DNA of 64,000 bases from Planctomycetota bacterium. GTDB lineage: Bacteria; Planctomycetota; Planctomycetia; Pirellulales; UBA1268. Below are positions 19,383 through 62,680 of the stretch, piece after piece. How positions within the stretch are numbered: position 1 is the stretch's first letter; every line of letters begins with the position of its first letter. The stretch is from contig QWPN01000032.1 of the NCBI GenBank assembly GCA_003671185.1, positions 15,805-79,804 on the forward strand, read 5' to 3'. The position numbers and the translations under genes were made by a program. Under the pieces are notes generated by a model. The model was not told the origin of the DNA and did not search any database. It worked only from the letters and a program-made list of their open reading frames with translations.

Positions 19383-19640
19383 ATGCTCGTGCTCTCCAGA
19401 CAACGTGACGAAAGCATCATGATCGGCGACAATATCGTCGTCACGATCGTGGATATCCGGGGAGACAAGGTCCGGCTGGGCATCAACGCGCCTTCGGAGG
19501 TCCCGGTGCACCGCCAGGAGGTGTACGAGGCGATCCAGCGGGAGAACCTGCGGGCCACACGTCTGGAGCCAGGCGACACGCAGGACATCGGCAAGTTTGC
19601 CAACCGGGGGCCCCAGCGGCCCAACGATCGGCCGCGCTGA
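19383..19640 (+). CDS. csrA: Carbon storage regulator CsrA (copy 1, FliW-linked)
   Basis: MLVLSRQRDESIMIGDNIVVTIVDIRGDKVRLGINAPSEVPVHRQEVYEAI. The leader carries four GGA motifs, including the SD AGGAAGGAA. Confidence 0.95.
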   Translation: MLVLSRQRDESIMIGDNIVVTIVDIRGDKVRLGINAPSEVPVHRQEVYEAIQRENLRATRLEPGDTQDIGKFANRGPQRPNDRPR

Positions 19641-39370: not shown

Positions 39371-40360
39371 ATGGACCTCACGCCCCGGTCGCTCGGCACC
39401 TCGCCCGTTTCCATAGGACCGTTGGGGCTGGGCTGTTGGCCGCTGGCAGGAATGACCAGGGAGGGCGTCACGGCCGAGGCCGCCGTGGCCACCGTCCGCG
39501 CGGCTGTTGACGCCGGCGTCGCCCATCTCGACACGGCTTACTGCTATGGCGAGCACGGTGAGAGCGAGCGGGCCATTCAGGCCGCCGTGGGCGGCCGACG
39601 CGACCGCGTGGTGATCGCCGGCAAGTGCGGGATCCACTGGGAGAAGGACACCACCAAGACACCACCGCGCCGACAGGTGGTCGACGGCCGTCCGGAACGG
39701 ATCCGCGCCCAGGTGGCCGAGAGCCTGGCCCGGCTCGGCACCGACCATCTCGATCTGCTCTACCTGCACGCTCCGGACCCGGCCATCCCGATCGAGGAGT
39801 CGGCGGGCGAGTTACAGCGGTTGCTCGATGCAGGGCAGGCACGAGCCATCGGGCTCTCCAACGCCTCCACACCGCTCCTCGCCCGGTTCGCCGCCGAGTG
39901 CCCGCTGCACGCCTGCCAGATGCACTTCAACATGCTGCAGCGGGAGATCGAGGCCGAGGTGCTGCCCTGGTGCCGGTCCCGGGGCGTGGCCATGGTCGTG
40001 TACTGGCCGCTTATGAAGGGGCTGCTGGCGGGCACCATGGAGCGAAACCGCGTCTTTCCGGCGAGCGACAGCCGCCACAAGTACCCGATGTTCCAGGGGC
40101 TCGAGTTCGCCAGGAACCTCGATTTCGTCGAGTCTCTGCGGCCCGTCGCCGAGAGGTTGGGCCACACCCTTCCGGATCTGGTGCTGGCCTGGACGGCGGA
40201 GCAGCCCGGTATCACGGGCGTGCTGTTCGGTGCCACCAGTCCGGAACAGGTGTGCGAGAACGCCCGTGCCCTGGCCTGTGATCTGGACGACGAAGCCCGC
40301 ACTGCGATCAGAGCCGCGATCGCGGCCCGCGGGCAGGTTGCCAGCGGCCGCGCGGTCTGA
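39371..40360 (+). CDS. Aldo/keto reductase
   Basis: Motifs LGLGCWPL, HLDTAYCYGEHGESE, DLLYLHAPD and IGLSN. Confidence 0.9.
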   Translation: MDLTPRSLGTSPVSIGPLGLGCWPLAGMTREGVTAEAAVATVRAAVDAGVAHLDTAYCYGEHGESERAIQAAVGGRRDRVVIAGKCGIHWEKDTTKTPPRRQVVDGRPERIRAQVAESLARLGTDHLDLLYLHAPDPAIPIEESAGELQRLLDAGQARAIGLSNASTPLLARFAAECPLHACQMHFNMLQREIEAEVLPWCRSRGVAMVVYWPLMKGLLAGTMERNRVFPASDSRHKYPMFQGLEFARNLDFVESLRPVAERLGHTLPDLVLAWTAEQPGITGVLFGATSPEQVCENARALACDLDDEARTAIRAAIAARGQVASGRAV

Positions 40361-40427
40361 CATCCCGGCCCGGTCCTGCCGGCAGATGGGCGCTGACACG
40401 GCCATCCTGTCTCGCCCGGGGCACCGC

Positions 40428-40943
40428 TCAGGAACCGGGCTTCGCGCCGCCACCTGGAAAAAAGTTGAACGCCTGGGCACTGGCCGCCTGCGCCGCCGCC
40501 ACGGCGGCGGCCAGTTCGGCGACGTCGCGCACCGTGACCCAATCGAGGAGCCCGTCGCGCCACACCAGTTCCTCGGGACCGACGTCACCACTCGCCACGA
40601 GCTGCTGGAGCGTCCCCGTGTCTGCCGTCGTCTCCTGCTGGGCCCCGTGCACCGTGTAATGCCACACGAAACCGTCGTTCACCGGGGCTGGAGCCGCGGC
40701 CGGCGTGGCGCTGGTGGTCGTGGTGGACGGCGCGGGTGCGGCGACGGCTGCCCCGACGATGTCCGGGCAGTCGGCCAGCGGCACCCAACTCTGACGATCC
40801 GTCGAAACCTTGTCCGATCGGGCCGCCCTGCCTCGATGCAGCATGCCCCGCAGTTGCTGTGCACTGAAGGGGCCGCTGATCTTGGTCTGCTGTCGCAGGT
40901 AGTACATGTTCACGGCGAGCCTCCGGCCCGCCCTCCCGGTCAT
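40428..40943 (-). CDS. Double GYF_2(DUF4339)-like domain protein (array B, gene 5)
   Basis: The ATG at 40943 forms an ATGA overlap with the upstream stop; an alternative ATG is at 40907 (MYYLRQQ...). There are two repeats of the pattern [WY]-Y-x-n-G-x-n-L-x-n-W-V-x-V/L: MYYLRQQTKISGPFSAQQLRGML...QSWVPLADCPDI and WHYTVHGAQQ...LQQLVASGDVGPEELVWRDGLLDWVTVRDVAEL. Confidence 0.6.
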   Translation of the reverse strand: MTGRAGRRLAVNMYYLRQQTKISGPFSAQQLRGMLHRGRAARSDKVSTDRQSWVPLADCPDIVGAAVAAPAPSTTTTSATPAAAPAPVNDGFVWHYTVHGAQQETTADTGTLQQLVASGDVGPEELVWRDGLLDWVTVRDVAELAAAVAAAQAASAQAFNFFPGGGAKPGS

Positions 40944-42943
40944 TGTGTCGGCGATTGCAACATCACTTCGATCTCGTGGATCGCCGCCACCTCGTCGGGC
41001 GCCACACGACGCCGCACACTGCCGCCCAGCAGCGCATCCACCGTCGCACACTTGTCCATGGAGGCCTTGTCCCGCAGCGAATGGAGTCGCTGGAGGAGGC
41101 TCCTGGCGCGCTGTGCGTCCTTGCCGGCCAACGCCGCGTCGGCCTCGCCGCGAATCGTGGCCAGTTCCTCCTTGAAGGCCTGTGTGGCGGCCTCGCGGAA
41201 CTCGTTCTCGAGTTCCTTTTGCGCGTCGCCTCCGGCCACGATTTCACTCTCTTCCTTCTTCAGCGCATGGCGTGACTCGACGCAGTCTTCCGGCGGTACC
41301 TTGGCGGCACGGTCGCCCTGTCCCACGCGATGGCCCGGGTCACCACCCAGCGATCGCGCTACGCGCCACGCCTTGGCCGCGGCCGGCACGTCGTCCGGCC
41401 AGGCTTCGAGCCGCTGCAGTCCCGTGCGTTCCGTGAGCTTTCGTCTCGCCGTCTCCACGTTGGCGGCATGACGTGCCAACGCTTCCTGCACCTGCCCGCG
41501 CCGTTCACGTTCCTCGTCGACGGCGACACCGATTTCCTCGATCAACAGCGCGATTTTCTCATCCGCCGCATACGCGGACGCGACCTCGGCCACGAACTTC
41601 GGCGGTTCCACGAAATTGCCCGCCTGCGCCTGATGAAGGGTTTTTTCCAACCTCGCCCTGTCTTTCTCCAATTGCTGCGAACGTCGAGCCCCGAACATGA
41701 ACAGCCCGATCGCCAGGACCGCCATCACCACCCCGGCCACGACGGCTCCGAGCAGCATCGTGTGCCGGCGGGCTCCTCGGGCCCGCACCTCGGCCAGAGC
41801 CTCCTCGACGCGGACACGGAGCGGCTCCGGGTAGGCCAGGTCCGGCACTTCTTGGCACAGCCTCGCCACCTCGTCCTGCCGTTCGGCCACACTGTCGAGC
41901 CAGGCCGTCTCCACCTTCCAGTGCGGGAGCCGCTCGACGTGCTGCTCCAGTTGTTCGCAGGCATGCGCAAACCGGCTCGCCGTGTCGTCCCTCGTGTCCT
42001 GCTCGCCAAGCCAGTCGAGCACCGGCTGTGTTCGCGCCGGGAGCACGTCGAACCGGCCGAACAGCCCCTCGTCGCGGACGAGGGCGGCGACGTTGGGACT
42101 CTCGGCAAGCGCGGCACGGCAGCCGGCGGCTTCGTCGCGGGTCTCCTCCCAGCGCTGCCGCAACCGTCTGGCCTCGTCCACCATCTCCAGGGTGGGCGGC
42201 TGCAGCACCGCCCTGGCATACCAGGCCTCGAGCGCCGCGGCCGCTGCCTCGCCCTCGGTCACCACGTCCCGCAGCCGCAACCAGGCATCGGCTCCCCGAG
42301 TGGCACGCACGTATTCCTTGGGCACCGGCACCGTCCATCCGCTGGCCGTCAGTTCGTCGTGCAAGGTGGCTATGGCCGCGGGGTCGCGGGCCGCCAGCGC
42401 CTGCCGCACGGCGTCTTTCAGCTCCCCATGACGCACCTGTTCGTGGGCCGCGATCAACTCAGCCCACACCGGCTTCGTGGGATCGAGTTCGCCGAGCTTC
42501 CGCAGCACCGCCAGCCGCCGACCGAGCGGCGCCCGTTCGAGGGTCATGCGCCGCAACTTGTCCAGGGTTCGGCTCAACGGCTCGAGTTCCGAGTGCGCCG
42601 ATTCCAACGCCGAGAGCGTGTCGAAATCGACCGCCGGCGGCGGACCGATGCCCTCGCTGGCGAAGTATTGCTCGACCTGGGGCCACGTAGCTCGGTCCTG
42701 GAGATTGAGCCGGGCGGCGAGCGCCGGAAACTCGGGGTCGTGCAACGCGATGGCCTCGTCGCGAAGGCCCTCGAACAGCAATGCCTCCACCTCCCCCAGC
42801 GCGGCGTTGACCGCGTCGACCGTCTCGTGCAGGTTGGGGAGCAGGTCCCGGATCGCCACCAGCCCCTGCTCGTCGTGCCGCGCCATGGCGGTATCGATCG
42901 CGTTGACGAGCTTGGATAGGTCCTGGAGTCGCGTGAACGGCAT
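40940..42943 (-). CDS. Hypothetical all-helical protein with one central TM helix (array B, gene 4; 667 aa)
   Basis: GAGGAA SD. The sequence is predicted helical/coiled-coil-rich (by eye), with the TM helix MLLGAVVAGVVMAVLAIGLFMF at about aa 395-416. No known motif. Confidence 0.65.
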   Translation of the reverse strand: MPFTRLQDLSKLVNAIDTAMARHDEQGLVAIRDLLPNLHETVDAVNAALGEVEALLFEGLRDEAIALHDPEFPALAARLNLQDRATWPQVEQYFASEGIGPPPAVDFDTLSALESAHSELEPLSRTLDKLRRMTLERAPLGRRLAVLRKLGELDPTKPVWAELIAAHEQVRHGELKDAVRQALAARDPAAIATLHDELTASGWTVPVPKEYVRATRGADAWLRLRDVVTEGEAAAAALEAWYARAVLQPPTLEMVDEARRLRQRWEETRDEAAGCRAALAESPNVAALVRDEGLFGRFDVLPARTQPVLDWLGEQDTRDDTASRFAHACEQLEQHVERLPHWKVETAWLDSVAERQDEVARLCQEVPDLAYPEPLRVRVEEALAEVRARGARRHTMLLGAVVAGVVMAVLAIGLFMFGARRSQQLEKDRARLEKTLHQAQAGNFVEPPKFVAEVASAYAADEKIALLIEEIGVAVDEERERRGQVQEALARHAANVETARRKLTERTGLQRLEAWPDDVPAAAKAWRVARSLGGDPGHRVGQGDRAAKVPPEDCVESRHALKKEESEIVAGGDAQKELENEFREAATQAFKEELATIRGEADAALAGKDAQRARSLLQRLHSLRDKASMDKCATVDALLGGSVRRRVAPDEVAAIHEIEVMLQSPTQ

Positions 42944-42958
42944 GATCTCGGTTCCTCG

Positions 42959-44797
42959 CTAACGCGGCGCCGCGCCGGATGCATCGTCGGCCGCGGCAGT
43001 GGTGTGGGATCGGTGCCGCGCGAACGACACGAGCACGCTGCGGCCGATTCCGGGAAAACTTGCGCCCAGGTCACCGCTGAACGCTGCATCGCCGGCTCCG
43101 ATATCCTTCAAGAGCTGCTGGGCGGCCCGCTTGCCGTCCGGAACGGCGTCCAGTTCCTCGAGCATGCAGCAGAGGGCGACTTCGGTCGCCTCCTCCCGGT
43201 GTGCAGCCAGATCAGCCTGCAGGTGGCTCCAGTATGCACTGGTATCGGCATGTCCGTCCGCGATCTCCCGTCGTCCGTCGGCGCTCGCCTGCCAGGCCCG
43301 ATATCCGGGCGTTTCCCGCAGCAGCTCCCTGAACCTATCCTTCCACATGGCCAATGGGAGCGCCTCCTCGGGGCTCAATTTCTGCAGGCACTCGTGCAGT
43401 GCCCGCGGCGCTCCCGGCACCTGCAAGCGGTAACGCCGCACGACGTCGGCGAACTGCGCGATGGCGCCGATACCCGCTCGGTCGGCTTGGGGAACCCGGG
43501 CCTGCACCACGTCTGCGAATGCGTGCGGTTCGGGAAGCACAGCCAGCCCCGACCGCTCTTGGCCCGCATTTTGGACGTCCGCCAGACGGCGATACGAGTC
43601 CCAGGGATCGAGCACCCGAGACGAAGTCAGCCTGAACGGAAGTTCGAGCCGCTCACCGGACGAGAGCGGACCGCTCGGCCCCAGCGTCAGCGTGGTCTCC
43701 ATGAACGGCTGGCCCGTGGCGCCGGCCCACGCCCAGAGCAACGTGCATCCGGGCGGTTCGGCGCCGGGCTGGAGCCGTCCGGCATGGGGCGAAGCCGACG
43801 ATGACGAAGAGCCGCACGTCCCGTCGAGCCTCAGATCGACCACCCAGGGGCTGACCGGCACCTCGACGTGCAACAGGGGCTTCCCGCCGGCGGACGCGTC
43901 CACACGCAACGCCTCATCAAAAAAGAATCGCTTCACGTGCAGGGGACCGTGCTCGACGGGACGGCCCAATTGGACGTGGGTTTCCTGCCCCTCATGTCCT
44001 GCCGCGGAGATGGCGATCACCGTGCTGGCCAGCGCCTCCCGGGCCCGCCACTGCTCGACGTGCCCCGGCACAGTGACCGACTCGCGGACGTCGATCCACG
44101 CCGTCAGCATGCCACGCTCCACGGCGGCACCACCGCAACGCCGATCGCGGCCCGCCGTGACGCTCACAAACGTCCAGGACTGGTCGCCGTCGGGTCGGCA
44201 TTCGAGCACCGAAGGCGGACCGTCCGGGAGCAACTGCACCTTTTCGGCCGGGAGCCGCAGCGAGATGGGCACGTTGCCCACGGTGCACAGTTCCCCGCGC
44301 TGCCGCCGCGGATCACCGCCGTCGAGCCCCTGCAGCGGAAGGTGGCGGTTGTGCTGCAGTTCGGTGCCGATGGCAGCAAAATGCGAGACCGCCGCCGGTG
44401 CGGCACGCCGGCCATCGCCATCGGCACGCCGGCCGTCGCCTTCGGCGTGGGCGGCCGTGCCGTGAGACCGCATGGTGGAGCCGGCCCGGGAGCGTTTCGG
44501 GGCCCCCGCCGACATGTCGGTGCCGATCACCAGCGCGGCGATGCCACCGGCCACGAGACAACCGGCCACCGCCGCCAGGGCGAAGATGGTCTCGTTGCGA
44601 CGCATCTTTCGCCACTTTCGCGGCCGGGACAAACTCGCAGTTACCGCGTTCTGCTCGGCGGCAGTGGCGGCGGCAGCGGCGGCCGCCGGGGCGATTGCCG
44701 GCGGACGGACCGGTGCTCGACCTGGCACGGGCGCGGGCCGAGACGCCCCCGGTAGCGAGGGCGGCTTTGGCGGTGGCGGTGGATCCCGAAACGGCAT
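42959..44797 (-). CDS. Hypothetical Pro-rich single-pass TM protein, paralogue of the C-terminal half of the upstream gene (array B, gene 3; 612 aa)
   Basis: N-terminus MPFRDPPPPPKPPSLPG and TM helix IFALAAVAGCLVAGGIAALVI. The ~500-aa C-terminal region aligns by eye with 44814..~46350 (HLPLQGLDGG/HLPIQGLDSG; THVQLGRPVEHGPLHVKRFFFDEALR/THVQLCRPTAGGPIVVEQFFFDDKLR; AYWSHL...VALCC[ML]LEELD). Confidence 0.7.
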   Translation of the reverse strand: MPFRDPPPPPKPPSLPGASRPAPVPGRAPVRPPAIAPAAAAAAATAAEQNAVTASLSRPRKWRKMRRNETIFALAAVAGCLVAGGIAALVIGTDMSAGAPKRSRAGSTMRSHGTAAHAEGDGRRADGDGRRAAPAAVSHFAAIGTELQHNRHLPLQGLDGGDPRRQRGELCTVGNVPISLRLPAEKVQLLPDGPPSVLECRPDGDQSWTFVSVTAGRDRRCGGAAVERGMLTAWIDVRESVTVPGHVEQWRAREALASTVIAISAAGHEGQETHVQLGRPVEHGPLHVKRFFFDEALRVDASAGGKPLLHVEVPVSPWVVDLRLDGTCGSSSSSASPHAGRLQPGAEPPGCTLLWAWAGATGQPFMETTLTLGPSGPLSSGERLELPFRLTSSRVLDPWDSYRRLADVQNAGQERSGLAVLPEPHAFADVVQARVPQADRAGIGAIAQFADVVRRYRLQVPGAPRALHECLQKLSPEEALPLAMWKDRFRELLRETPGYRAWQASADGRREIADGHADTSAYWSHLQADLAAHREEATEVALCCMLEELDAVPDGKRAAQQLLKDIGAGDAAFSGDLGASFPGIGRSVLVSFARHRSHTTAAADDASGAAPR

Positions 44798-44813: not shown

Positions 44814-47768
44814 TCAACGATCGACCGGCGGAGGCACGTCGAGCCTGTCCTCGATGGCGGGTGCGGCGGGGCGCTGAACTTTTGGCTTGTCGCGTTGGGC
44901 GGTCGGCTCCGGCTTTCTCGCGCTCACAAAGGTCGGGGGCTTGTCGCCAAGGACCAGAAGCACGCAGTTCCGTCCGTTTCCGAAGTCGATGGCGACGTCG
45001 CCACGAAACTCGGCATCGCCCTCGCCGAGCGCTTCGATCAGGCTCCTGGCCTGCTGTTTGAGCGGTGGCAGCATGTCCAGTTCCTCGAGCAGGCAGCACA
45101 GCGCCACGTCGGGGTGCGTGGTCTTGGTCCGGTCTTGCCCGGACTTGAGATGCGACCAGTATGCCGCGATGTCTCGCGGCGTTGGGGGACCTGAAGGCAC
45201 ATCCTGGTTCGCACCTCGGGCCGCAGTCGCGGTCCAATCCCGATATTCCGCCGACTCTGCCAACGCGCCGCGAATCCGCTCCTTCCACAGCGACACGGGT
45301 TGCTGGCCCTGCATTTCGATCTGTCCGAGGTCGAGCGGGGCCTTGGGATACTGCCGGCACACCTTGGTGCTGAATTTCTTGATGAGGTCGAAATCGACTT
45401 CGTCGTGGTCCGAGTCCGCCGGCACTTCGACGCCGATTTTCAGCAGGCTGACCCTCGGCAACTGGTGCAACGGGATCCGCGGCGGGACGGCCTGGTTGAG
45501 GTCCGCGCAGAAGCGGAACGTGTTCCACGGTTCCAGGACGTCGGACGACTGCAGCCAGAATTGGGTGTCGCATGGATCACTGTCCGTCGCCGGCACCTCT
45601 TTGTTGGCGAGTTGCAATTCCGTCTTCATCACGGGCTTGCCGGCGGGTGTCGACCATTCGATCGTCCAACTGGCGGGGGAGTTGAGCGCGGCGGAAGGAT
45701 ACCCTGCCCCTGACGTCGTGATTCTCCCCGCCAGTCCCCCGGGCACGCTCGTCCCCTCGAAACGCACCTGACATTGCCAGGGGGTCGAGGGCAGAGAGGC
45801 TCCCAGAAACAGTTTCACGGGGGTGTGCTTGAGCGATTGCGGCCGCAGTTTGTCATCGAAAAAAAACTGCTCGACCACGATTGGCCCGCCAGCGGTCGGA
45901 CGACACAACTGCACGTGCGTCGTCTGTTGGGGATGCTCCTCATCGGCCAGGATCACGATCGCGGTCGCCACCGCTGCCCGGGCGCCGAGATGTTCGCTGA
46001 ACCGCGGATCGTTGGGGGCGACCCGCTGATTCAGCGTGGCGCACACGGTATCGTCACGGATCGCCAGACGGCCAACTTCTATGGGCTCCGGAGCGACCGC
46101 GGCTCCGACTCGCGAACAGAGGATCCTCCAGTCGCCCTCCGCTGTCGGCACACACGACACTCGCGACTGCGGGCCGTTTGGTGCCAGGTTGAGCACGGCA
46201 TCCGGCAACTGCGGCCTGACCCTGGCGCCGTGCAGAGCGCACAGCCGTGCCGTCTGCTCCTGGAGAATGCCGCTGTCGAGTCCCTGGATGGGCAGATGCT
46301 CGGCGCTGTCGAGCGCTGAGCAGAGCTTGGGAAACGCGTCGACCGCTGGGGGAGCAGGCCGGGGCGGCCCGGGCGGCAGCGGCGGCGGTGGCGGTGGCGG
46401 TGGCGGTGGTGATGGTGAGGTGCGGCGGTCGATCGGCAAGCCGTCAGCCGACCGGGATGATGAATCGGCCACCACATCGGGACCGCCGACGACGAGGGGC
46501 GGCGGCACGGAAGACGGCTGAGCCACGATTGGCGCTCGTCCACCGCGGTCGGTTGCCAGTTCTGTTGGCGAAGGATTTCTTGGCCTCTCCGTCTCGCCGC
46601 TGGCGCCGGGGCGTCTCGAATTCGTGCGCGGCGGTGTCCCGGCGTCGCGCAATCCCATGAATCGCGTGCGCACACCGGGCACGACCAGGGCGATGAGTGC
46701 CACGATCACCGCCGTTGCCAGGGCGACCACGACGAGGGGCACCCATGACCGCCGTTGCCCCCGCTCCGCCCCCTCCGGTGCCGGCACGGCGGCGCGGGGC
46801 TGGCGAGCGGCGGTCGTGGAAAATGCGAACGGATTGGCGAGTGGCGGCGGAGCTCCAGGACGACCGGCCGCGATGCGTGGCGGCCTTCCGGGAGCGGCGG
46901 CCGCAGCGGCGCCGACGGCTGCGACCGCCCCGCCCCCACTCGCCGTTCCGGCCGGCAGCGCCTGCCACGGCACTTGTGCCTTTCCGCGAGCGGCGTCGAC
47001 CAGCGCCGATGCAGCCGTGAGCGGCGGCTTGCGGACGAGATCGACGACCGCGACCCGCGACTGCCCGCGGGCTGCCTGTGCTTCCGGCGAGCCATCCACG
47101 GTCCCCAGCCAGAGCATGTCGGGCTGCCCGACCGCGTACGTCGTGAACGTCACGCCCCAGCGCTGCGCGGGCGGCACGAGCGACAGGGCCTCCGCGAAGA
47201 GTTCGATGAGTTCGCAGTCTGCGGCGGCGATGATCCAGGTCTGTTCCCGACGCAGCGCCCGCTCGACGATGACACCCGCCCAACCGGCGTCACCCGCAAC
47301 ACGCGCCCAGGCATTGCATGGCTTCGGCTCGCACGCCGGCGCGGGTGGGGCGATCGTAGGCGCGGGTTGCTCGCGGGGCTGGCCCGACCATCGCCGCAGC
47401 AATCCGCCGGCATGATCGAGGGCCATCAGTACGCTGGCCGGACTCGACATGGCCCGCGCCGACACCTCGCCGCCGTCAAGCGCCAGATGATGGGCCAGCT
47501 TGTTGGAGCGGCCATCGTAGCCATTGCCCGCGTCGACGATGCTGCTGAGCACGGACATTTGGCCCGCCGGCGACTGAAGGAGCGCGTGGGACAGGATGCG
47601 GGGGTTCCGCGCGTCCCCCTGCGGGTACACGTGGCGGTAGGCGCTGCCCTGTTCCAATTTCGACTGCAGTTCGGGATGAATGCCTCGCGTCCGCAGCACG
47701 GTGGTGAAACCACTGCGGCCGGCCTGCAGGCCCCGCGCGGCGCTGGTGACCACGAGTTCGTGGATCAT
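44814..47768 (-). CDS. GAP1-like (GTPase-associated) single-pass TM protein, 984 aa (array B, gene 2)
   Basis: The ATG at 47768 (MIHELVVTSAARGLQAGRSGFTTVL...) forms an ATGA overlap with the GTPase stop. It has a ~330-aa N-terminal module, an Ala/Pro linker, the TM helix WVPLVVVALATAVIVALIALVV, a Pro10 tract, and the shared ~500-aa C-terminal domain. The GAP1 assignment rests on recollection of the family N-terminus and was not searched. Confidence 0.6.
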   Translation of the reverse strand: MIHELVVTSAARGLQAGRSGFTTVLRTRGIHPELQSKLEQGSAYRHVYPQGDARNPRILSHALLQSPAGQMSVLSSIVDAGNGYDGRSNKLAHHLALDGGEVSARAMSSPASVLMALDHAGGLLRRWSGQPREQPAPTIAPPAPACEPKPCNAWARVAGDAGWAGVIVERALRREQTWIIAAADCELIELFAEALSLVPPAQRWGVTFTTYAVGQPDMLWLGTVDGSPEAQAARGQSRVAVVDLVRKPPLTAASALVDAARGKAQVPWQALPAGTASGGGAVAAVGAAAAAAPGRPPRIAAGRPGAPPPLANPFAFSTTAARQPRAAVPAPEGAERGQRRSWVPLVVVALATAVIVALIALVVPGVRTRFMGLRDAGTPPRTNSRRPGASGETERPRNPSPTELATDRGGRAPIVAQPSSVPPPLVVGGPDVVADSSSRSADGLPIDRRTSPSPPPPPPPPPPLPPGPPRPAPPAVDAFPKLCSALDSAEHLPIQGLDSGILQEQTARLCALHGARVRPQLPDAVLNLAPNGPQSRVSCVPTAEGDWRILCSRVGAAVAPEPIEVGRLAIRDDTVCATLNQRVAPNDPRFSEHLGARAAVATAIVILADEEHPQQTTHVQLCRPTAGGPIVVEQFFFDDKLRPQSLKHTPVKLFLGASLPSTPWQCQVRFEGTSVPGGLAGRITTSGAGYPSAALNSPASWTIEWSTPAGKPVMKTELQLANKEVPATDSDPCDTQFWLQSSDVLEPWNTFRFCADLNQAVPPRIPLHQLPRVSLLKIGVEVPADSDHDEVDFDLIKKFSTKVCRQYPKAPLDLGQIEMQGQQPVSLWKERIRGALAESAEYRDWTATAARGANQDVPSGPPTPRDIAAYWSHLKSGQDRTKTTHPDVALCCLLEELDMLPPLKQQARSLIEALGEGDAEFRGDVAIDFGNGRNCVLLVLGDKPPTFVSARKPEPTAQRDKPKVQRPAAPAIEDRLDVPPPVDR
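46380..46409 (-). repeat. Pro10 tract encoded by a (CGGTGG)n hexanucleotide tandem repeat
   Basis: The plus strand reads cgg cgg tgg cgg tgg cgg tgg cgg tgg, which equals 10 consecutive Pro codons on the minus strand, within SPSPPPPPPPPPPLPPGPPRPAPP. Confidence 0.85.
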
Positions 47769-49087
47769 GGGGATTCCCCACCCCCTGCCTCGACCGCCGG
47801 TTTCGCCGCGTCCGCCGCAGCGGACCGCGGCACGCCGTGCGGAATGATGGCGGCCGAGCCACTGCCGAACTGGCTGAGCGCATAGAGCATGGGCACCTCG
47901 GCCCACATCGGGTTGATGGATCCGGCACGGTGCCAGTAGCCGTTGTCGGGGCCGCGCTGCGGCGGACCGCCCGTGGCACTGACCGGCACGTAGACGATCC
48001 TGCTCGGCTCGACGAAGCTCTCCGCCGTGGCCACGACCGCCGGCATGTACTCGTGCAGCATCTGGCGGATCGCGGCCGAAGCCCCCTGGATCATGTCGGG
48101 CCGCAGGACAGCGAAGCCGCCCGTCGGGTGCATGGTCCAGGGATCGGGCAGCCGCTCCCGGCCCAGGAGTTTCTGCCAGGCGTCGTATTTGTTCACCAGC
48201 ACGAGCAACGGCCGGTCGTGACGGGCATTCACCGCCAGGCCACGGTATGACTTGACGCGGCGGGCGACTTCCGCGAGCAACACTTCCTGCCGGCTGAGCA
48301 CCGCCGGATCGCGGACCTGCTCGTCCTCGGATATGTTCTGCAGGTGCTTGCGGAACTCGGGTTCCTGTGCCGGGTCATAGACGAACATCAGGCAATTCGA
48401 TTTCGCCAGATGCTGCGTCACGGGGTTGTCGGGCCGGTCGGCCCCGGGCTGGAAACTCTCGCCGGCGTTGTCGTAGACGCAGAGCGTGCGGGCCACGGAG
48501 GCGGGCTTGGCGGCATAGGGGTGTGAGCCAACCGGGCTGATCTGGAAGAAGAACGGCTTCGGGTAGAGGATCCGCTTCTCGCCGTAGGTCACCTCGTGAT
48601 ACCAGTCGCCGGTCACGTCGGTCTTCTTGAGATGCACGAGATCGTCGGGTTTGCCGTGCGCGAACAGTTCGTCCTCGTACTCGTGCAGCACCGCGTTGGC
48701 CTGCGGATCGGCATCGCTGAAGTCGATGGCAAACGACTTGGGGAGCAGTTTGCGCAGCCTGTGGATCATCGACGCCAACAGGTAGGACTTGCCGCTCTTG
48801 GGCGAGCCGAAGACCGACGCGAAGAACGCCGGCCGCTCCAGGAACACCCGCGGCACACCCAGATGACAACGCGGGCATGCGAGTTCGTGGCAGGGAGCAC
48901 CCTTGGCGTCCAAAGCCCGGCCTTCCGGATCGAAACGCGTGGGCGGAAAGCGCCGCCGTTCGTTCGGCCCCAGCCGCAGGTCACCGAACAGGTCGTGGTG
49001 CGATGACACATACCACACCCGCTCCGGCGGAAACCGCTCCCAGCAGTTGGGGCAGGTCACTTCCTTGACGAGGCTGGTGTGCTGCAT
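47765..49087 (-). CDS. Zn-ribbon + Ras-like (TRAFAC) GTPase (array B, gene 1)
   Basis: N-terminal CPNC...CPRC motif. G1 GSPKSGKS, G3 VYDNAGE, G4 LVNKYD, G5 VSATG. Confidence 0.8.
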   Translation of the reverse strand: MQHTSLVKEVTCPNCWERFPPERVWYVSSHHDLFGDLRLGPNERRRFPPTRFDPEGRALDAKGAPCHELACPRCHLGVPRVFLERPAFFASVFGSPKSGKSYLLASMIHRLRKLLPKSFAIDFSDADPQANAVLHEYEDELFAHGKPDDLVHLKKTDVTGDWYHEVTYGEKRILYPKPFFFQISPVGSHPYAAKPASVARTLCVYDNAGESFQPGADRPDNPVTQHLAKSNCLMFVYDPAQEPEFRKHLQNISEDEQVRDPAVLSRQEVLLAEVARRVKSYRGLAVNARHDRPLLVLVNKYDAWQKLLGRERLPDPWTMHPTGGFAVLRPDMIQGASAAIRQMLHEYMPAVVATAESFVEPSRIVYVPVSATGGPPQRGPDNGYWHRAGSINPMWAEVPMLYALSQFGSGSAAIIPHGVPRSAAADAAKPAVEAGGGESP

Positions 49088-49353
49088 GGTGGCGCTAGTG
49101 ATCGCGACTCCGGCAGGGACTCAGGCTGTGGGCAGCACCGGTTCGGGCGGTGCCCCGCCCGACGGCCCGGCGGCGTCACGTCCCTCCCTCAAAAGTATGG
49201 ACAGTCGGCATAACCCGCAACCCCCGCACCTGACGGATGGGGATGAAGCCGGGCCGCGGTTTGACCGATCACCGAAAGCGGGCTAGGGTTCCCGAGAGTC
49301 TGCCGTCGGCCTCCCAGACGGACCGTCCCGAACTCCAGCCCGGAGGGCTTTCC

Positions 49354-49908
49354 ATGCGTTCCGCCCGCTCTGCGATTCTGTGCGCGTTGCTCTTGGCCGC
49401 CGCGACCACGGTGCGGGGCGAACCGATCACCCCTGCCATCGCCGATTGGGCCCTGCAGAACGCCGCCGACATCACATCCAGACTGCGGGCCAAACTGGCG
49501 GAGTACGACGAGGATGGCGGTGAACTCAAAGGCTTGGTCGACGTCAACGCCCCCGGATGGAACATTTACAACCGCGACCGGCAACTGCTGATCGCCATCC
49601 CCGTGAAGAAGAACCTGCTGTTTGCCAGCAAGAAGACCGGCGAAACGAACGCCGCCGCACTGGCCCGCAGCATCATCCAGCAGATCAACACCATCCCCCT
49701 GCAAGCCGACAACGAGACGGCTCGCCTCGACGACAACGCGGTTCGCGTGGTGTTCATCGAGCCGGCCGTGGCCGACATCCGCTCCGGATCCTTTTCAGCC
49801 TCGTCCGCTACGACGGCGGCGTGGGCCGGATTCCAGCCGCCTCTCGGGTACGCTCCCTCCGGCTTCTACCCACAGGCTTCGTTCTCCAACGCCTGCGGCT
49901 GCCACTGA
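49354..49908 (+). CDS. Small secreted hypothetical protein (184 aa) wedged between the two arrays
   Basis: ATG at 49354 within ORF 49237..49908, with a GGAGGG SD. Signal peptide MRSARSAILCALLLAAATTVRG. The C-terminus ends ...NACGCH. Confidence 0.6.
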   Translation: MRSARSAILCALLLAAATTVRGEPITPAIADWALQNAADITSRLRAKLAEYDEDGGELKGLVDVNAPGWNIYNRDRQLLIAIPVKKNLLFASKKTGETNAAALARSIIQQINTIPLQADNETARLDDNAVRVVFIEPAVADIRSGSFSASSATTAAWAGFQPPLGYAPSGFYPQASFSNACGCH

Positions 49909-49923: not shown

Positions 49924-51996
49924 TCAGGGCAGGACCTTGAGCGAGTCGTACCAGAGAATGCCGGGCCCGCGGGCGTTGGTGAGCCGCTTCGAACGTTCCT
50001 GGAGGATGGCCGAAACCTCCTGCTTGACCTTGGGCGCCTTGATGGGCCCGCTCACGAACAGCACGGGGTTGCGCACACGCATTCCCATGCGGTCGCGCAG
50101 GAATGCGCCCAGCGTGCGGTCCTGCTCCGGCATCTCGCTCCAGGCCGCCTCGATGGCCGCCTTGGCCTTGGTATGCGTCGAACGCTTGGCGATCAAGTCG
50201 GCGATGAATTTCACGGCCGCCTCTCCATTGAGCCTATCGCTCCGCTCCAAGTCCTTCACCAGGGCCATGAACATCGCCTCCAGAACGTCCACCTCGACCG
50301 GTGCCAGGAAGAGCAGTTCCCGCAGTTGGGGCATCTTCACGTCAGGCTGCAGCGGGTGGAACATCCAACCGGTGGCCGGCACGTAGTACTGCTGGTTGCT
50401 GGCGGCGAACGCCGCCAGCGTGCCACCGTCGTCGACGATCCGCTGTTCCATGCCCGGCCCCGGCACGGCGTACTGGTTGCGACGCTCCAGGGCGTCGATC
50501 TCCCGGGCCAGTGCCGCCTGGCGCCGCTGCTGCTCGGCCCCGGCTTCCCGGATCCGTTGATTGAGCTGGCTCGGATCGTTGATCCCCACGTTGCCTGGCA
50601 GCACCACGCTGCCAGGCTCGCACTTGTCGGCAATCCGCTGGGCCTGCTCCGCGAACGACTTTTGATACGACCTGTCTCCTTGGCCGACCCGGATAAATAC
50701 GAGCCGCACACCGGTCTGGGCCACGAGATCGGCCACTTCGTCGACCAATTTGTCCAGTTCGGCGTCGCGCCGGCGGTCGCCGGTGTCGCCGATCACCAGC
50801 ACCAGGCGTGACGAACCGGCCGAGAACTTCGCCGCCTTGATGCCGGCGATGATGCCGTCGAGCATCAATTCCTCGGGCTGGTCCCCCTCGCCGATCGGCG
50901 CCACCTCCTTGTGGGCGGCGACCTCCGTCGCCACGGCCGCGGCCTTCTCGGCGGTGAGCTTCTCCAAGGGCCCGAGATTCTCCAGGACGGGCTTCCCCTT
51001 GCCCCAGAAATCTCGATACCACACCACCCGCATCGCCGCCCCCACGCTTTCCGTGCCTTTCAGGCCGGCGATGAAGTCGGCCACCGGCTTGAAGTACGGC
51101 TGCATGCTCAGTGTGTCGTCGACCACGAACAGCATCTCGAAGTGAGATTCCTCCCCTTGTTGCTGCTGCTGGGTCCTCTTGCGTGCCAGCACCTTCGGAT
51201 TGACAGGGCCTCCACACACGGCGCCGATATGAAGCAGCCGGTTCTCGGGCCCCAGAGGAAACGTCTGGGGGGTATCCGGCAGTTTTTGCTCTTCCGCCGG
51301 AGCGAGCTCCAGGAAGGGGGGCGCCTCGCTGATCCGGCGCGGATCCCAGCTCGTTGCCCCCTTGCGTTCGGTGATCAGCACCTTGGCCAGATTCCGATCC
51401 GCCGCCTTCTGCACCACCAGGGCGTCGTAGGCATCCTCGGCACTGGCATACAGATCAACGGGATGCTTGCGCTCCAGGTTCGTGAACGAGTAGCCGTAGC
51501 GGCTCTTGAGCAGTTCCAGCTGCTCGCCCGATGCCCAGCCCACCACGGGCGTCTGCCCGGGCCGCGGGTCCTTGACCTGGGCGTAGTCGTTCGCCAGCAG
51601 GCACCAGCCGTTACCCAGCCCGTCCCCAATCTGCGCGTAGACGTAGAGCGGCATGAACAGGGGCTGCCGGGCGACGACCGGTTCCGTGAGCGAGGGGCTG
51701 TTTCGCAACTCCAGGTGGTCGAGCTTGCGCAGGCGTTCATCGGCGCCGGGCCGGCGCACTCCCATCGCCATGCGCGGCACCACCGTGCCCTCCATGAACA
51801 GGCATTCCAGAGCCAGCGGCGACCCGTCCGGCATGACGGGGTTCGGGGCCTTGTCGGGCAGGTAGACGGCCGCGTCGTCGGCAGCCGGGCCGAGCCCGCC
51901 CCCAGCCGCCGCCGGTTGCGCGGTCGCCGGCGTCGCTCCGTGGAGCACCACGGCGATCGCGACGACCGCAGTGCAGACGGCCGAACGTATCGCCAT
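49924..51996 (-). CDS. Secreted von Willebrand factor A (vWA) domain protein, 690 aa (array A, gene 7)
   Basis: Signal peptide MAIRSAVCTAVVAIAVVLHGATPATA. MIDAS-like motif FEMLFVVDDTLSM, followed by LVLVIGDTGD. The ATG overlaps the upstream stop by 1 nt (TGATG). Confidence 0.75.
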   Translation of the reverse strand: MAIRSAVCTAVVAIAVVLHGATPATAQPAAAGGGLGPAADDAAVYLPDKAPNPVMPDGSPLALECLFMEGTVVPRMAMGVRRPGADERLRKLDHLELRNSPSLTEPVVARQPLFMPLYVYAQIGDGLGNGWCLLANDYAQVKDPRPGQTPVVGWASGEQLELLKSRYGYSFTNLERKHPVDLYASAEDAYDALVVQKAADRNLAKVLITERKGATSWDPRRISEAPPFLELAPAEEQKLPDTPQTFPLGPENRLLHIGAVCGGPVNPKVLARKRTQQQQQGEESHFEMLFVVDDTLSMQPYFKPVADFIAGLKGTESVGAAMRVVWYRDFWGKGKPVLENLGPLEKLTAEKAAAVATEVAAHKEVAPIGEGDQPEELMLDGIIAGIKAAKFSAGSSRLVLVIGDTGDRRRDAELDKLVDEVADLVAQTGVRLVFIRVGQGDRSYQKSFAEQAQRIADKCEPGSVVLPGNVGINDPSQLNQRIREAGAEQQRRQAALAREIDALERRNQYAVPGPGMEQRIVDDGGTLAAFAASNQQYYVPATGWMFHPLQPDVKMPQLRELLFLAPVEVDVLEAMFMALVKDLERSDRLNGEAAVKFIADLIAKRSTHTKAKAAIEAAWSEMPEQDRTLGAFLRDRMGMRVRNPVLFVSGPIKAPKVKQEVSAILQERSKRLTNARGPGILWYDSLKVLP

Positions 51997-53954
51997 CAGA
52001 GCGTCCGATTCAGGCTGGCTTCAACGCCCTCTGCCGGCGTCGATTCTTGGGATGGCACGGTTTCGCCCGGCACGCGGCCCGGGGCACCCGCCGCCTCGTC
52101 GTGGGCGTGTTGCATGACGTTCTCCAGGTGCAGCCGCAGTTCCGCCGCCTTCGGCGATCGCACCGTGACCTCGCCGGGCTTAACGCCGGCAGGCACGAGC
52201 CCCTGGTGCATGTATCCCGCATAGGCCGGGTCGGCATCCGGGAACAGGAACGACATCGGAGCCAACCCAGGCCCCTTCGGCGGCTCGAGGCCACGGCCCA
52301 AGATCAGGTTCCGTTCCGGCCAGATGACGATGGCCCGTAGGTCGGGGTTCTGTGCCGCCTCACGTTTCTTGCGCACCGTCTCCTCGATCCGTGCGAGCTG
52401 ACCTGTCACGTCTTCCTGATCTTCCTCGAAAGGACGGAACATCTTGTCCTTTTCCGGGCTGCCACCAGACGGGGTGAGCAGATCTTCGCCCTTGTCCTGC
52501 CGGTTGAGGATGATCGCGCCGTTGTCGTAGATCTCCGCGGCGCGGCTGGCAACCGCCTCGCGGACCTGCTCGGTGATCTTGTCGCCCGGTTCGTGCAAAC
52601 GCTCGTCGTTGACGAGGATGATGATGTAGTCGCCGGTCTTTGGCGGCCCGCACAGCGCCTTGCAGCCGCAGCCCTTTCCGCCGCCGGCACCACTGCCGGA
52701 GCCGCTTCCAGAACCCGAGCCAGAGCCGCTGCCCGAACCCGAACCGCCGCCCTCGCCTGACCCGCCACCGCCGCCGCCACCAGGTGTTGCTCGGACCTCG
52801 ACCTTCGAGCCCATCGTGCCGTCGATCCCACCGAGGTCGGCGACCGACACCGGCTCGCTTCGTACCGCACCGGCTCGGGTCCTCACGCCGACGCCACGAC
52901 CGTCGTCTCCCAGACTGATGAAATCCTCGACGTCGCGTTCCATCGGCCCATTCCGCGCCAGGAGCACGGCGCCGTCCCGCTCCAGGTGGTCGATCTGCCG
53001 GCCGTCGCGATCCAGAAAGACGAGGTTTTCATCCGGCAACGGGTCGTCGTTCGCCGCCACCAGCGTGCAGGTGCGGGGATTGTCGGGGAACAACGGATGT
53101 GGCGGCGTCTCCATCTCGAGTTCGTACACCTCGTCGGGCCCCGGTGCGTTGTCGTCCCGCAGGCCGAACTTTTGTAATTCCTCGGGGGTCAGAACGTCTT
53201 CGAGCCGCATGCTTACGCTGCGATCTCCGACGTCGAACACTCGCTCGAAATGCTTGAGCAACGACCGCGGCTCGCCCGGTGTCGCCCGATACAGGTCGAA
53301 AGCCACCGGCACCCTGGTGTTCACAGCGGAGGCCGCCGGCACTTCGACCGTTGTGGAGGCCAGATCGTGCTCCGGCACCACCACCCTCTCAGTTGCGAAC
53401 TGCACCGGGATCACGCCCTCGGGTGTCGCTTCACGCGTGTCGTCGTCGACGATCGTCACCGTGCACCAGCCGTCGTCGCCCACGGTTGCGTCGGCGGTGG
53501 GCTGCAGCTCCAGACGGAAAGTCCGCCTGCCGTCCTGGCCGGTGAATTCGTCGTCATTGACGATCGTGATGTCCGGTGTCTCGGACTTCGTCATCCGCAG
53601 CTTGCCGTCCACGGCCCCCTCGTCGAAATGCATCACGGCGCCGCTGGGGATGACGCGGAAATCGCGGTCGTGCGTCGCCGACACGTCGGTCCAGACGAGC
53701 GGCACATCCATGGCGTAGGGCGCGGGCTTCGTGAGCTTGGCGCGGAGTCGCAACAGACCGTTGACATCGGGCTCTTCAACGCTGAGGCCCTTGCCGTCGA
53801 AGGCGACCTGGAGTGCCGTGGGCGGGGCGGCAGGCGGAGGCGAGAGCACCAAAAAGCCGGTGATCGTGAGCGAGTACACCCACACCACCCACCAGCCGAA
53901 CATAGAGAGCAGCGATTGACCGTTGAACATGATCTGTTCCCCGCGTGGTGTCAC
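51996..53954 (-). CDS. N-terminally TM-anchored protein with Calx-beta-like repeats, Gly/Ser linker, Cys cluster and C-terminal alpha/beta domain (array A, gene 6)
   Basis: The GTG at 53954 forms a GTGA overlap with the upstream stop; an alternative ATG is at 53930. TM helix [19 protein letters not shown]. Calx-beta-like pattern [21 protein letters not shown]...[11 protein letters not shown]...FRLEL and TVTIVDDD. A (G/S)36 tract is followed by [10 protein letters not shown]. Confidence 0.65.
   Translation of the reverse strand: [652 protein letters not shown]
52674..52781 (-). repeat. Gly/Ser low-complexity tract (36 aa) including a near-perfect (GS)9 repeat at 52689-52745
   Basis: Translation [37 protein letters not shown], encoded by imperfect hexanucleotide repeats (gagcc/gaacc units). 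Confidence 0.85.
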
Positions 53955-54859
53955 CCGTCCCCGAACATCTTGCCGAGCCCCTCGAAATCCTGTGCTGAGA
54001 TCGATGGCAGCGCCGGCTCTGGAGCGGGTCGCGCCTGGCCGGCACCCTTGGGCGTTTCCCGCTGCGTCACCGCAGCCTGTCCCGGCGCAGACGGCCCCGA
54101 CGCGAGTGCCGCGGCCACCACCGGTCCGGTTGCAGCCGGGAGATTGGCAGCCACGAACGCCGACTGCGCGTCAAGCGGGTTGACGCTGGACGACCAACGC
54201 TGCAGCAGGCTGCGCGTCCACTGGTCGATGGCCACGATCAACAGCATCAGCAGAAGAGCCGCCGCGATGGAGAGAATCATCGGCCATGCCACGACGCCGG
54301 CGACGGATCGCTTGCCTGCCTCGACGAGGCCCTTGCTCACGTACTCACCCCAGGTATCCCAGGCGCTGATCAGGCCGAATACGGGTGCCGTGAACGCGGC
54401 GGCACAGGCCGGCCAGAGCCGCTGCCCGAGAAGGCCCCGCGCCCGCGGCGCAAACTCGGTGACGGCATTCGTGAAATCCTGATCGGTGCGGCGCAGGGCC
54501 GGCGTGTTCTGCAGCGCCGCCGCCACGAGCCGAAGCGGCCACCAGGGGTGGTCTGTGTCGCCGTCGGATTCCGGTCCCGGTCGGCGCCCGAGTGCGCCAC
54601 TCAGCCGAAACAGCGAGAGGACTCGTGGCAGAAGCGTGAACACCCCGCCGAGGGCGATGCCATACGCGGCACAAGCCCACGGCTTGAGCGATCCACCGAC
54701 ATCTTCCGATCCAGCCACCATTGGCAGGACGAGGTAGCCCAGGCCGCCGCCCACGGCGATCACGATCCATGACGCCCAAGCGGCACCACCACCGAAAACG
54801 TCCCGGACGGCCGCTGCCAGCCCGTACCCCTCGGCATCACGATCACTTCTGCCCGACAT
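53951..54859 (-). CDS. Polytopic inner-membrane protein, 302 aa (array A, gene 5)
   Basis: About 4-5 hydrophobic helices (WASWIVIAVGGGLGYLVLPMV, ACAAYGIALGGVFTLL, WPACAAAFTAPVFGLISAW, VVAWPMILSIAAALLLMLLIVAI) and an Ala/Pro-rich tail. It starts 6 bp after the upstream stop. Confidence 0.65.
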   Translation of the reverse strand: MSGRSDRDAEGYGLAAAVRDVFGGGAAWASWIVIAVGGGLGYLVLPMVAGSEDVGGSLKPWACAAYGIALGGVFTLLPRVLSLFRLSGALGRRPGPESDGDTDHPWWPLRLVAAALQNTPALRRTDQDFTNAVTEFAPRARGLLGQRLWPACAAAFTAPVFGLISAWDTWGEYVSKGLVEAGKRSVAGVVAWPMILSIAAALLLMLLIVAIDQWTRSLLQRWSSSVNPLDAQSAFVAANLPAATGPVVAAALASGPSAPGQAAVTQRETPKGAGQARPAPEPALPSISAQDFEGLGKMFGDG

Positions 54860-54865
54860 GTTCGG

Positions 54866-60546: not shown

Positions 60547-60576
60547 GGGACTTCCTGGCAGCTGACGCCGCCGCCC

Positions 60577-62631: not shown

Positions 62632-62680
62632 CGGTCGATTCTCCCTGTCTTCCCTGCGGGCAGCGGCCCGCGGATCGAGC

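Follow-up and report, generated by a model that had tools for sequence, protein, structure and literature searches.

What do the two GYF domains encoded at the end of a planctomycete membrane-protein operon bind? We address this question in a window of 64,000 nucleotides (nt) of DNA from a Planctomycetota bacterium of the order Pirellulales (GenBank assembly GCA_003671185.1; contig QWPN01000032.1, positions 15,805 to 79,804 of the forward strand); positions given below are those of the window, that is, of this whole stretch. The operon lies on the minus strand and encodes a DO-GTPase-like protein, a GAP1 protein, two further membrane proteins, and a double GYF_2 protein. A first-pass annotation had proposed that the GYF repeats dock on proline tracts of two upstream membrane proteins, which were taken to be cytoplasmic and to be bound in the way that eukaryotic GYF domains bind PPG-type motifs. 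We present here an analysis of the domains, the membrane topology, and the conservation of the proline motifs, which places the longest tract almost certainly in the periplasm and points to another motif, PPx[LIVM], conserved on the cytoplasmic side of GAP1, as the best candidate ligand within the operon.

A double GYF_2 protein in a GAP1-N2/DO-GTPase operon

The genes and domains of the operon are as follows.

40428 to 40943, minus strand: double GYF_2 protein gene, 171 amino acids (aa) as called, product predicted to be cytoplasmic
40755 to 40907, minus strand: GYF repeat 1 (residues 13 to 63; MYY...GPF...W type), from an AlphaFold2 (AF2) model and our own GYF hidden Markov model (HMM)
40509 to 40667, minus strand: GYF repeat 2 (residues 93 to 145; WHY...GDVGPEELVWRDGLLDW type), with the best Pfam stretch at residues 94 to 144
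40940 to 42943, minus strand: 667-aa helical protein (H667) with a single transmembrane (TM) segment at residues about 396 to 418
42959 to 44797, minus strand: 612-aa type II membrane protein (P612), from its TM segment and flanking charges
44814 to 47771, minus strand: GAP1 protein (985 aa), from Pfam, its TM segment, and 65 homologues
47765 to 49087, minus strand: DO-GTPase-like protein (440 aa), which has a P-loop (GSPKSGKS) and, N-terminally, a CxxC...CxxC zinc ribbon

The last gene was expected to encode two GYF_2-like repeats, and it does. The Pfam GYF_2 model (PF14237, DUF4339) matched two stretches of the protein with 70.3 bits against a cutoff of 25.8 (E = 1.2e-19), our own GYF HMM matched repeat 1 at residues 13 to 63 (E about 1e-24), and PF14237 was found in 12/12 homologues (42 to 97% identity). 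The AF2 model, for which an alignment of 13 orthologues served as input, agrees, with two beta-beta-alpha-beta(-beta)-alpha domains at residues 13 to 63 and 93 to 145 (predicted local distance difference test [pLDDT] scores of 75 to 84) and a disordered Ala/Pro/Thr linker between them. Repeat 1 is modeled with strands at residues 13 to 18, 21 to 27, and 45 to 47 and helices at residues 28 to 36 and 60 to 63. The alignment of the 13 orthologues holds 41 invariant columns.

Among structures in the PDB, Foldseek matched the GYF domain of GltJ (7z3c) with a probability of 1.0 and a root mean square deviation (rmsd) of 2.5 Å over 62 columns, and it also matched the GYF structures of Smy2, GIGYF1/2, and CD2BP2 (3fma_A, 7rup_A, 7ruq, and 1gyf). 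The same GltJ domain (7z3c_A) was the sole significant match in a sequence search of the PDB (E = 3.4e-6 with the single sequence and 1.6e-10 with a profile). Aligned with repeat 2, it shares the W, the G-VGP--L-WR-G--DW pattern, and AELA, with GEVGPDSLCWRSGFSDW opposite GDVGPEELVWRDGLLDW. The eukaryotic signature is kept in neither repeat, repeat 1 having YY...GPF without W-x3-GYF and repeat 2 having WHY without GPF or GYF. The full signature, W-x-Y-x(6-11)-G-P-F-x4-[MV]-x2-W-x3-G-Y-F, reportedly described by Kofler and Freund in 2006, is said to form the proline-binding pocket.

With the whole two-domain model as the query, the top Foldseek matches in the PDB were the Chlamydomonas TOC-TIC chains 7vcf_Q and 7xzi_F (E about 1e-3; rmsd, 18 Å), and the Arabidopsis TIC chain 8z9y_E was also matched. 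It may be that these chains are plastid-translocon subunits with a double GYF_2-like build.

No hydrophobic segment, whether a TM segment or a signal peptide, was found in the GYF protein, which is therefore predicted to be cytoplasmic. Its gene had been described as translationally coupled to the H667 gene through an ATGA overlap. The overlap is present at 40940 to 40943, but 10/12 orthologues begin at MYYLRQQ, which corresponds to M13 in the window (nt 40907), so that the true start is probably M13, giving a protein of 159 aa and placing the start 32 nt past the upstream stop codon. Read in this way, the sequence makes strict ATGA coupling doubtful, though the two genes are tightly linked. 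The GYF gene closes the operon, as first described; beyond it, a gene for an aldo-keto reductase runs convergently and ends at 40360. A scan for promoters and terminators around the GYF gene found nothing. An open reading frame (ORF) on the opposite strand (40230 to 41471, plus strand) was rejected as a GC-rich artefact, given the conserved protein family encoded on the minus strand.

By its domain content, the operon is a DO-GTPase system of the GAP1-N2 type described by Kaur et al. (eLife, 2020; PMC7159879), who reported GYF pairs in planctomycete GAP1-N2 systems. It shares with those systems an origin in Planctomycetota, the combination of GAP1-N2 (PF20013; residues 2 to 112; 62.2 bits against a cutoff of 24; E = 6.9e-17) with GAP1-M (PF20014; residues 152 to 246; 34 bits against a cutoff of 24; E = 3.5e-8), a zinc-ribbon GTPase directly upstream, and the fusion of GAP1 to a C-terminal TM segment and extracytoplasmic region. 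It differs from them in its DO-GTPase2 match (PF19993), which at 23.9 bits (E = 3.9e-5) falls under the curated cutoff of 27 bits, and in its GYF pair, which stands alone, whereas the pairs in their description are fused to trypsin or a TM-rich region (PMC7159879). The stop codon of the DO-GTPase-like gene overlaps the GAP1 start, and this gene order is conserved across related loci.

GAP1 consists, in order, of GAP1-N2, GAP1-M, a Pro/Gly-rich cytoplasmic linker, the TM segment (residues 343 to 367), a Pro-rich periplasmic spacer, and a periplasmic module of ~500 aa. P612 comprises a cytoplasmic Pro-rich N-tail (residues 1 to 66), a TM segment (residues 70 to 92), and a periplasmic module; its last ~470 aa and the C-terminal half of GAP1 are paralogues of each other (31% identity; E = 3e-61). 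The P612 tail would most simply be what remains of the linker in a copy of GAP1 from which the N2 and M domains were lost. In related operons, too, the GYF genes directly follow an H667-like gene. H667 and P612 both start with MPF. In all 7 aligned orthologues, H667 keeps GI.PPP.[LVI]D near residue 100 (about 97 to 106; 42626 to 42655, minus strand), a further PPx-hydrophobic site on a probably cytoplasmic region.

GYF genes are a regular part of this operon family. In nine metagenomic loci, found via GAP1 homologues, the gene order is GTPase, GAP1, zero to two P612-like genes, an H667-like gene, and one to four GYF genes; the latter are often fused to TM2, some with a zinc ribbon, and are followed by MotA_ExbB and two single-TM genes. 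A collection with one genome per species, searched with an alignment of the GAP1 N-terminal domain, yielded 442 relatives; with the full-length GAP1 protein as the query, the same genome contigs yielded no match. GYF domains were counted among the best 80 of the 442 relatives and the metagenomic loci, using only loci with at least 9 kb of context (n = 47). Same-strand GYF domains, mostly paired, were present 5 to 8 kb downstream of the GAP1 start in 44 of these 47 Planctomycetota loci. The orthologues P0074 to P0077 and the proteins of loci L006 and L007 consist of a double GYF and TM2. From this comparison of sequences, the clade of the window has evidently lost the TM2 anchor of its double GYF protein, and the MotA/ExbB module is lacking there as well. 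The sequences of the relatives also suggest that a proton-motive-force-driven stator belongs to the ancestral system. Literature on GYF_2 together with GTPase returned papers on GIGYF2 only, and that on DUF4339 nothing functional.

The MotA_ExbB modules lie at 19502 to 22289 in L004, 21965 to 22846 in L006, 20284 to 23010 in L007, 16854 to 19634 in L008, 10358 to 13097 in L009, and 16269 to 18856 in L013. The two single-TM genes after MotA_ExbB encode about 290 and 320 aa, with ExbD/TolR-like N termini.

Membrane topology and the polyproline run of GAP1

Which proline sequences could a cytoplasmic GYF protein reach? The membrane helix of GAP1 and the proline sequences in question are the following.

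46821 to 46889, minus strand: GAP1 juxtamembrane motif pair GRPPRIAAGRPGAPPPLANPFAF (PPRI at residue 297, PPPL at residue 308), on the cytoplasmic side
46671 to 46745, minus strand: single TM helix of GAP1 (residues 343 to 367), with a Kyte-Doolittle maximum of 3.26
46338 to 46415, minus strand: SPSPPPPPPPPPPLPPGPPRPAPP tract of GAP1 (residues 453 to 478), a predicted periplasmic, variable spacer
44690 to 44797, minus strand: N-tail motifs of P612, MPFRDPPPPPKPPSLPG (PPSL at residue 12) and RPPAIAP (PPAI at residue 32), a candidate GYF ligand

Proline tracts had been noted in both upstream TM proteins, and both were recovered where they had been placed. In GAP1, P10 followed by LPPGPPRPAPP makes up residues 455 to 478 (nt 46338 to 46409), and in P612, MPFRDPPPPPKPPSLPG makes up residues 1 to 17 (nt 44747 to 44797). 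The tracts had also been assigned to the cytoplasm. This assignment stands for the P612 N-tail, which lies ahead of a positive-inside anchor, but not for the P10 tract of GAP1: GAP1-N2 and GAP1-M precede the sole membrane helix and must meet the cytoplasmic GTPase, and the P10 tract comes after that helix and is therefore predicted to be periplasmic. Among 37 nonredundant GAP1 homologues, K plus R residues came to 2.59 on the N-side flank of the helix versus 1.84 (Wilcoxon P = 0.003), and a second TM segment was present in almost none. P612 carries RPRKWRKMRR ahead of its own TM segment, and since the C-terminal modules of P612 and GAP1 are paralogous, both should lie on the same, outer side. 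On these sequence features, the P10 tract is almost certainly periplasmic and out of reach of a GYF protein without a signal peptide.

The history of the tract is that of a repeat. The P10 run (46377 to 46415, minus strand) is encoded by a slippage-prone microsatellite of the (CCACCG)n type, and P0001, a database protein otherwise 100% identical to GAP1, has P8 instead, so that tract length is polymorphic between near-identical strains. Poly-Pro at this position is limited to the four closest GAP1 orthologues; the other GAP1 homologues have (PEPK)n, (KEAAA)n, (PTPQQ)n, (AADK)n, or E/K/A-rich sequence there. Under a model of independent residues with the Pro content of each protein, the expected count is ~6e-7 for the P10 run and ~0.003 for the P5 run of P612, and the tracts are therefore low-complexity features rather than products of chance. 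Taken as sequence, P10 looks like a length-variable periplasmic spacer between helix and module and not like a cytoplasmic GYF ligand.

In the GAP1 homologues P0005 to P0018, tandem repeats that differ by lineage occur about 20 to 130 residues past the TM segment, hypervariable and TonB-like in look. TonB itself has a (Glu-Pro)n-(Lys-Pro)n rod between its TM anchor and its C-terminal domain. The P10 and (PEPK)n-type repeats likewise connect a lone N-in TM anchor with a C-terminal module in the periplasm, and the operon of the relatives also encodes a MotA/ExbB homologue; the likeness is architectural only, and the Pfam scan of the operon proteins detected no TonB_C domain.

A conserved cytoplasmic motif and the candidate ligands

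The cytoplasmic side of GAP1 offers another proline sequence. Residues 292 to 317 read AAPGRPPRIAAGRPGAPPPLANPFAF and include the PPRI/PPPL pair. We aligned the N-terminal 430 residues of 65 homologues with MAFFT and counted motifs in the 37 nonredundant ones. Conservation is at least 90% at P297 and P298, and PPx[LIVM] recurs, often doubled, in the otherwise unalignable linker between GAP1-M and the TM segment, as GRPPRI..GAPPPL in the window and as GGPPVL..GAPPPL, PAPPPLVKPPPVV, or GLPPVL in other homologues. In this pre-TM linker, PP.[LIVM] occurs 77 times, versus 19.6 ± 4.2 in composition-preserving shuffles, with 0/1,000 shuffles reaching 77, and it is present in 32 of the 37 homologues. 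The narrower pattern [GA].PP.[LIVM] occurs 35 times in the linker, versus 4.5 in shuffles, and 0 times in the post-TM spacer, where PP.[LIVM] as a whole shows no enrichment (14 versus 9.5). A second set, of 61 independent, more distant genome-derived proteins, gave 50 pre-TM occurrences of PP.[LIVM] versus 18.2 ± 4.0 in shuffles (motif present in 35/61), and its 19 post-TM occurrences versus 14.4 were not significant. From this pattern of conservation, we regard the PPRI/PPPL pair of GAP1 as the best candidate for a GYF ligand within the operon.

The eukaryotic PPG-type ligand first envisaged found no counterpart here. The PPG-hydrophobic motif occurs 0 times both pre-TM and post-TM in the 37 homologues, and its single pre-TM and two post-TM occurrences among the 61 proteins are at chance level; the P10 tract of the window reads PPGP. 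The GYF domain of GltJ likewise makes no use of the eukaryotic pocket (PMC11135422).

The tail of P612 carries motifs of the same kind. Its residues 1 to 37 read MPFRDPPPPPKPPSLPGASRPAPVPGRAPVRPPAIAP, and when the longest ATG start was taken for each gene, RD(x)PPPPP followed by PPx[LIVM] was present in every P612-like paralogue found, namely, in the window, L001/L003, P0081, L004/L005, L006 (two genes), and L007. Public gene calls pick internal starts that cut off these Pro-rich N-tails, so that RD-PPPPP is visible only from the longest ATG; the tails cut off in this way lie at 12993 to 13188 in L001, 6234 to 6429 in L003, 9547 to 9634 in L005, 13111 to 13336 and 15259 to 15334 in L006, and 13094 to 13247 in L007.

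How might the GYF pair use such motifs? The GYF domain of GltJ uses its beta-sheet to bind a proline-rich sequence of AglZ, with an affinity in the micromolar range, and the residues best conserved in prokaryotic GYFs lie on the surface of this sheet (Attia et al., Sci Adv 2024; PMC11135422). Repeat 2 of the GYF protein aligns with GltJ over just these elements. As in nearly all bacterial GYFs, the G-Y-F triad is missing from the GltJ domain, which does not bind the CD2 PPPGHR peptide (PMC11135422). Because of the homology with GltJ, we infer that each repeat would bind a proline motif, gripping a short linear sequence by its conserved aromatic beta-sheet face (W/Y of beta1, VW, and DW), and the eukaryotic pocket is probably used by neither. 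The GYF protein would then be a soluble two-domain adaptor and a conserved accessory subunit of the Planctomycetota GAP1-N2/DO-GTPase membrane system. Its most probable ligands within the operon would be the PPx[LIVM] motifs of GAP1 just ahead of the membrane helix (GRPPRI...GAPPPL, residues 295 to 312) and, in this subclade, the homologous N-tail of the GAP1-derived paralogue P612 (MPFRDPPPPPKPPSLPG...RPPAI). With two GYF domains and paired motifs, the protein could bridge or cluster two membrane sensors beside the GTPase; in relatives, the same GYF pair would be tethered by TM2 next to a MotA/ExbB-type module. We put forward tentatively, at a little short of an even chance, that a cytoplasmic bivalent GYF adaptor docks on PPx[LIVM] of GAP1 and, in this subclade, of P612.

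Several observations weigh against such docking. A strict PP.[LIVM] is missing from the last 75 residues before the TM segment in 18 of the 44 GYF-positive loci, and the GAP1 linkers of L011 and L012 are without the motif though GYF is present. Across the 47 loci, GYF and motif occur together in 26, GYF alone in 18, the motif alone in 3, and neither in 0; with GYF almost universal, this correlation is uninformative. The shuffle tests take no account of the common descent of the sequences. GC-rich Planctomycetota commonly have Pro/Gly-rich juxtamembrane linkers, and PPx[LIVM] could serve another partner or act purely as a stiff linker. Tracts had been expected to persist in orthologous operons; the P612 tail does so in the P612-like paralogues, but P10 is confined to the four closest orthologues, and P612-type tails occur in only 5/58 loci. 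Set against the near-universal GYF genes (44/47), this last count means that the P612 tail cannot be the ancestral partner. In a Gly-Ser (GS)-linked AF2 chimera of GYF followed by P612 residues 1 to 40 and GAP1 residues 284 to 333, pLDDT served as the readout; P612 residues 2 to 11 reached 66 versus 41 to 45 for the GS linkers, which is no usable docking signal. We rejected such pLDDT rises as evidence either way, since small rises track prolines generally, in both peptides. The authors of the GltJ study also consider GYF ligands likely to vary by lineage (PMC11135422).

That last point would also suit a target outside the operon. The GYF pair might recognize a proline-rich sequence of an invading element or of an unlinked host protein, as the sensor or effector-recruiting arm of a conflict system, and the in-operon motifs would then be unrelated linkers. 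Kaur et al. count GYF pairs with a fused trypsin or TM-rich region as variable or effector components (PMC7159879), GYF copy number and fusions differ between loci (one to four genes; TM2, a zinc ribbon, or multiple TM segments present or absent), and the 18/44 GYF-positive loci without a strict GAP1 motif fit such a target too. The domains are well conserved, however, both in sequence and in occurrence, unlike a fast-diversifying sensor, and PPx[LIVM] is enriched specifically on the GYF side of the membrane in two independent sets. We consider an outside target possible but rather doubtful.

The GYF domains may instead bind no proline motif and contact a folded partner, such as the DO-GTPase, H667, or the MotA/ExbB-type stator of relatives, with the Pro stretches as passive linkers; we judge this unlikely. 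Passive spacers would not be expected to keep P297 and P298 near invariant inside an unalignable linker, nor PPx[LIVM] at ~3 to 4 times the level of composition-matched shuffles solely on the cytoplasmic side, and the closest characterized homologue, the GltJ GYF, binds a proline-rich sequence via residues conserved here. A folded partner would agree with the loss of the eukaryotic signature from both repeats, with post-TM spacers that are clearly interchangeable low-complexity repeats, with GYF genes that always adjoin an H667-like gene and, in relatives, MotA_ExbB, and with the lack of a clear docking signal in the AF2 chimera.

Docking in the cytoplasm on the SPSPPPPPPPPPPLPPGPPRPAPP tract itself, by eukaryote-like PPG recognition, is highly improbable, since this tract, extreme as it is and kept as poly-Pro in the four closest orthologues, lies past the only TM helix, opposite the cytoplasmic GAP1-N2 and GAP1-M, consists of a (CCACCG)n slippage repeat with P8/P10 polymorphism, gives way to non-Pro repeats in more distant homologues, and itself reads PPGP, with PPG-hydrophobic absent from the first homologue set, while the GYF protein has no signal peptide and the GltJ GYF does not bind PPPGHR (PMC11135422).

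Known systems, genomic surroundings, and significance

Adaptor docking on the GAP1 and P612 motifs can be set beside known GYF proteins. The window pair resembles the GYF of GltJ (AgmX), from the gliding machinery of Myxococcus xanthus, in being of the bacterial type without a G-Y-F triad, with GltJ as its best PDB match in sequence and fold. Like GltJ, it would serve as a module on the cytoplasmic side of a machine of the inner membrane that operates together with a GTPase; the operon relatives add a MotA/ExbB-type motor, and the associated single-pass proteins share a Pro-rich periplasmic spacer. GltJ differs in that a zinc ribbon, a linker, and then a single GYF follow one another in one membrane protein, whereas two GYFs are found here in a soluble protein and the GTPase carries the zinc ribbon. 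GltJ has as its partner a separate coiled-coil protein of the cytoplasm, AglZ, whereas the partners proposed here are membrane-protein tails from the same operon. Unlike the gliding machinery, the locus has no MglA/MglB or AglZ, and its function is not motility. The eukaryotic GYFs CD2BP2, Smy2, and GIGYF1/2 have the same fold and the same general role of proline-motif adaptor that is proposed here; their pocket is formed by helix and loop, whereas the bacterial binding surface is the beta-sheet (PMC11135422).

Upstream of the operon, four conserved genes at 49924 to 58072 (minus strand) encode proteins of 690 aa (with a signal peptide), 652 aa, 302 aa (with TM segments), and 1068 aa, for which we found no Pfam or PADLOC match. 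In L001, L004, L006, and L007 they keep their synteny with the GAP1 operon, and the system is therefore probably larger than the stretch from GTPase through GYF. A small ORF at 49237 to 49908 (plus strand; 223 aa as listed), with a hydrophobic N terminus, lies between the 690-aa gene and the GTPase gene, and an opposite-strand gene of 183 to 201 aa is found at the same place in L001, L004, L006, and L007. Further upstream, the region at 58111 to 62718 (minus strand) encodes a GTPase of the dynamin family (Dynamin_N, 28.4 bits) and a protein of 811 aa, for which the match was Hsp70-like but weak (E = 0.0098). PADLOC-DB v2 gave 0 matches for 9 operon proteins at E ≤ 0.01, and Pfam FN3, which would point to the FNIII-repeat protein associated with GAP1-N2-type DO-GTPase systems, was not matched in the operon proteins scanned, the periplasmic modules having had no structure-based search. 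"Array A" (19 to 36 kb) was rejected as a related system, as it consists of nuo/complex I and housekeeping genes.

The GYF fold, the presence of GYF in planctomycete GAP1-N2 operons, and the binding of proline sequences by a bacterial GYF were already known. New here are a stand-alone GYF pair without TM2, the near-universality of GYF in the operon family, the corrected topology, and a conserved cytoplasmic candidate ligand motif. Kaur et al. propose no GYF ligand (PMC7159879). The GAP1-N2/DO-GTPase systems are widespread in Planctomycetota, with the 442 relatives found in the one-genome-per-species collection. To our knowledge, they are experimentally uncharacterized, the binding target of their GYF genes has never been stated, and AglZ is the only bacterial GYF ligand known.

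The corrected topology makes the eye-catching poly-proline run a periplasmic spacer unsuited as bait. Were docking within the operon refuted, the GYF pair would become a candidate sensor for foreign proline-rich proteins. Were it true, proline-motif adaptor signaling would extend to a second bacterial machine, and it would be explained how the GTPase and the membrane sensors are wired together, along with TM2 and MotA/ExbB modules in relatives. It is conceivable, though on balance we would not expect it, that the operon forms a self-contained linear-motif adaptor-ligand circuit, in which the bivalent GYF protein recognizes PPx[LIVM] pairs in the juxtamembrane tails of the paralogous GAP1 and P612, clusters these periplasmic sensors, and gates the DO-GTPase, the pair being welded in sister clades to TM2 and a MotA/ExbB-type motor. 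Such a circuit would make a predicted conflict system home to a prokaryotic signaling scaffold of the SH3/GYF-polyproline kind.

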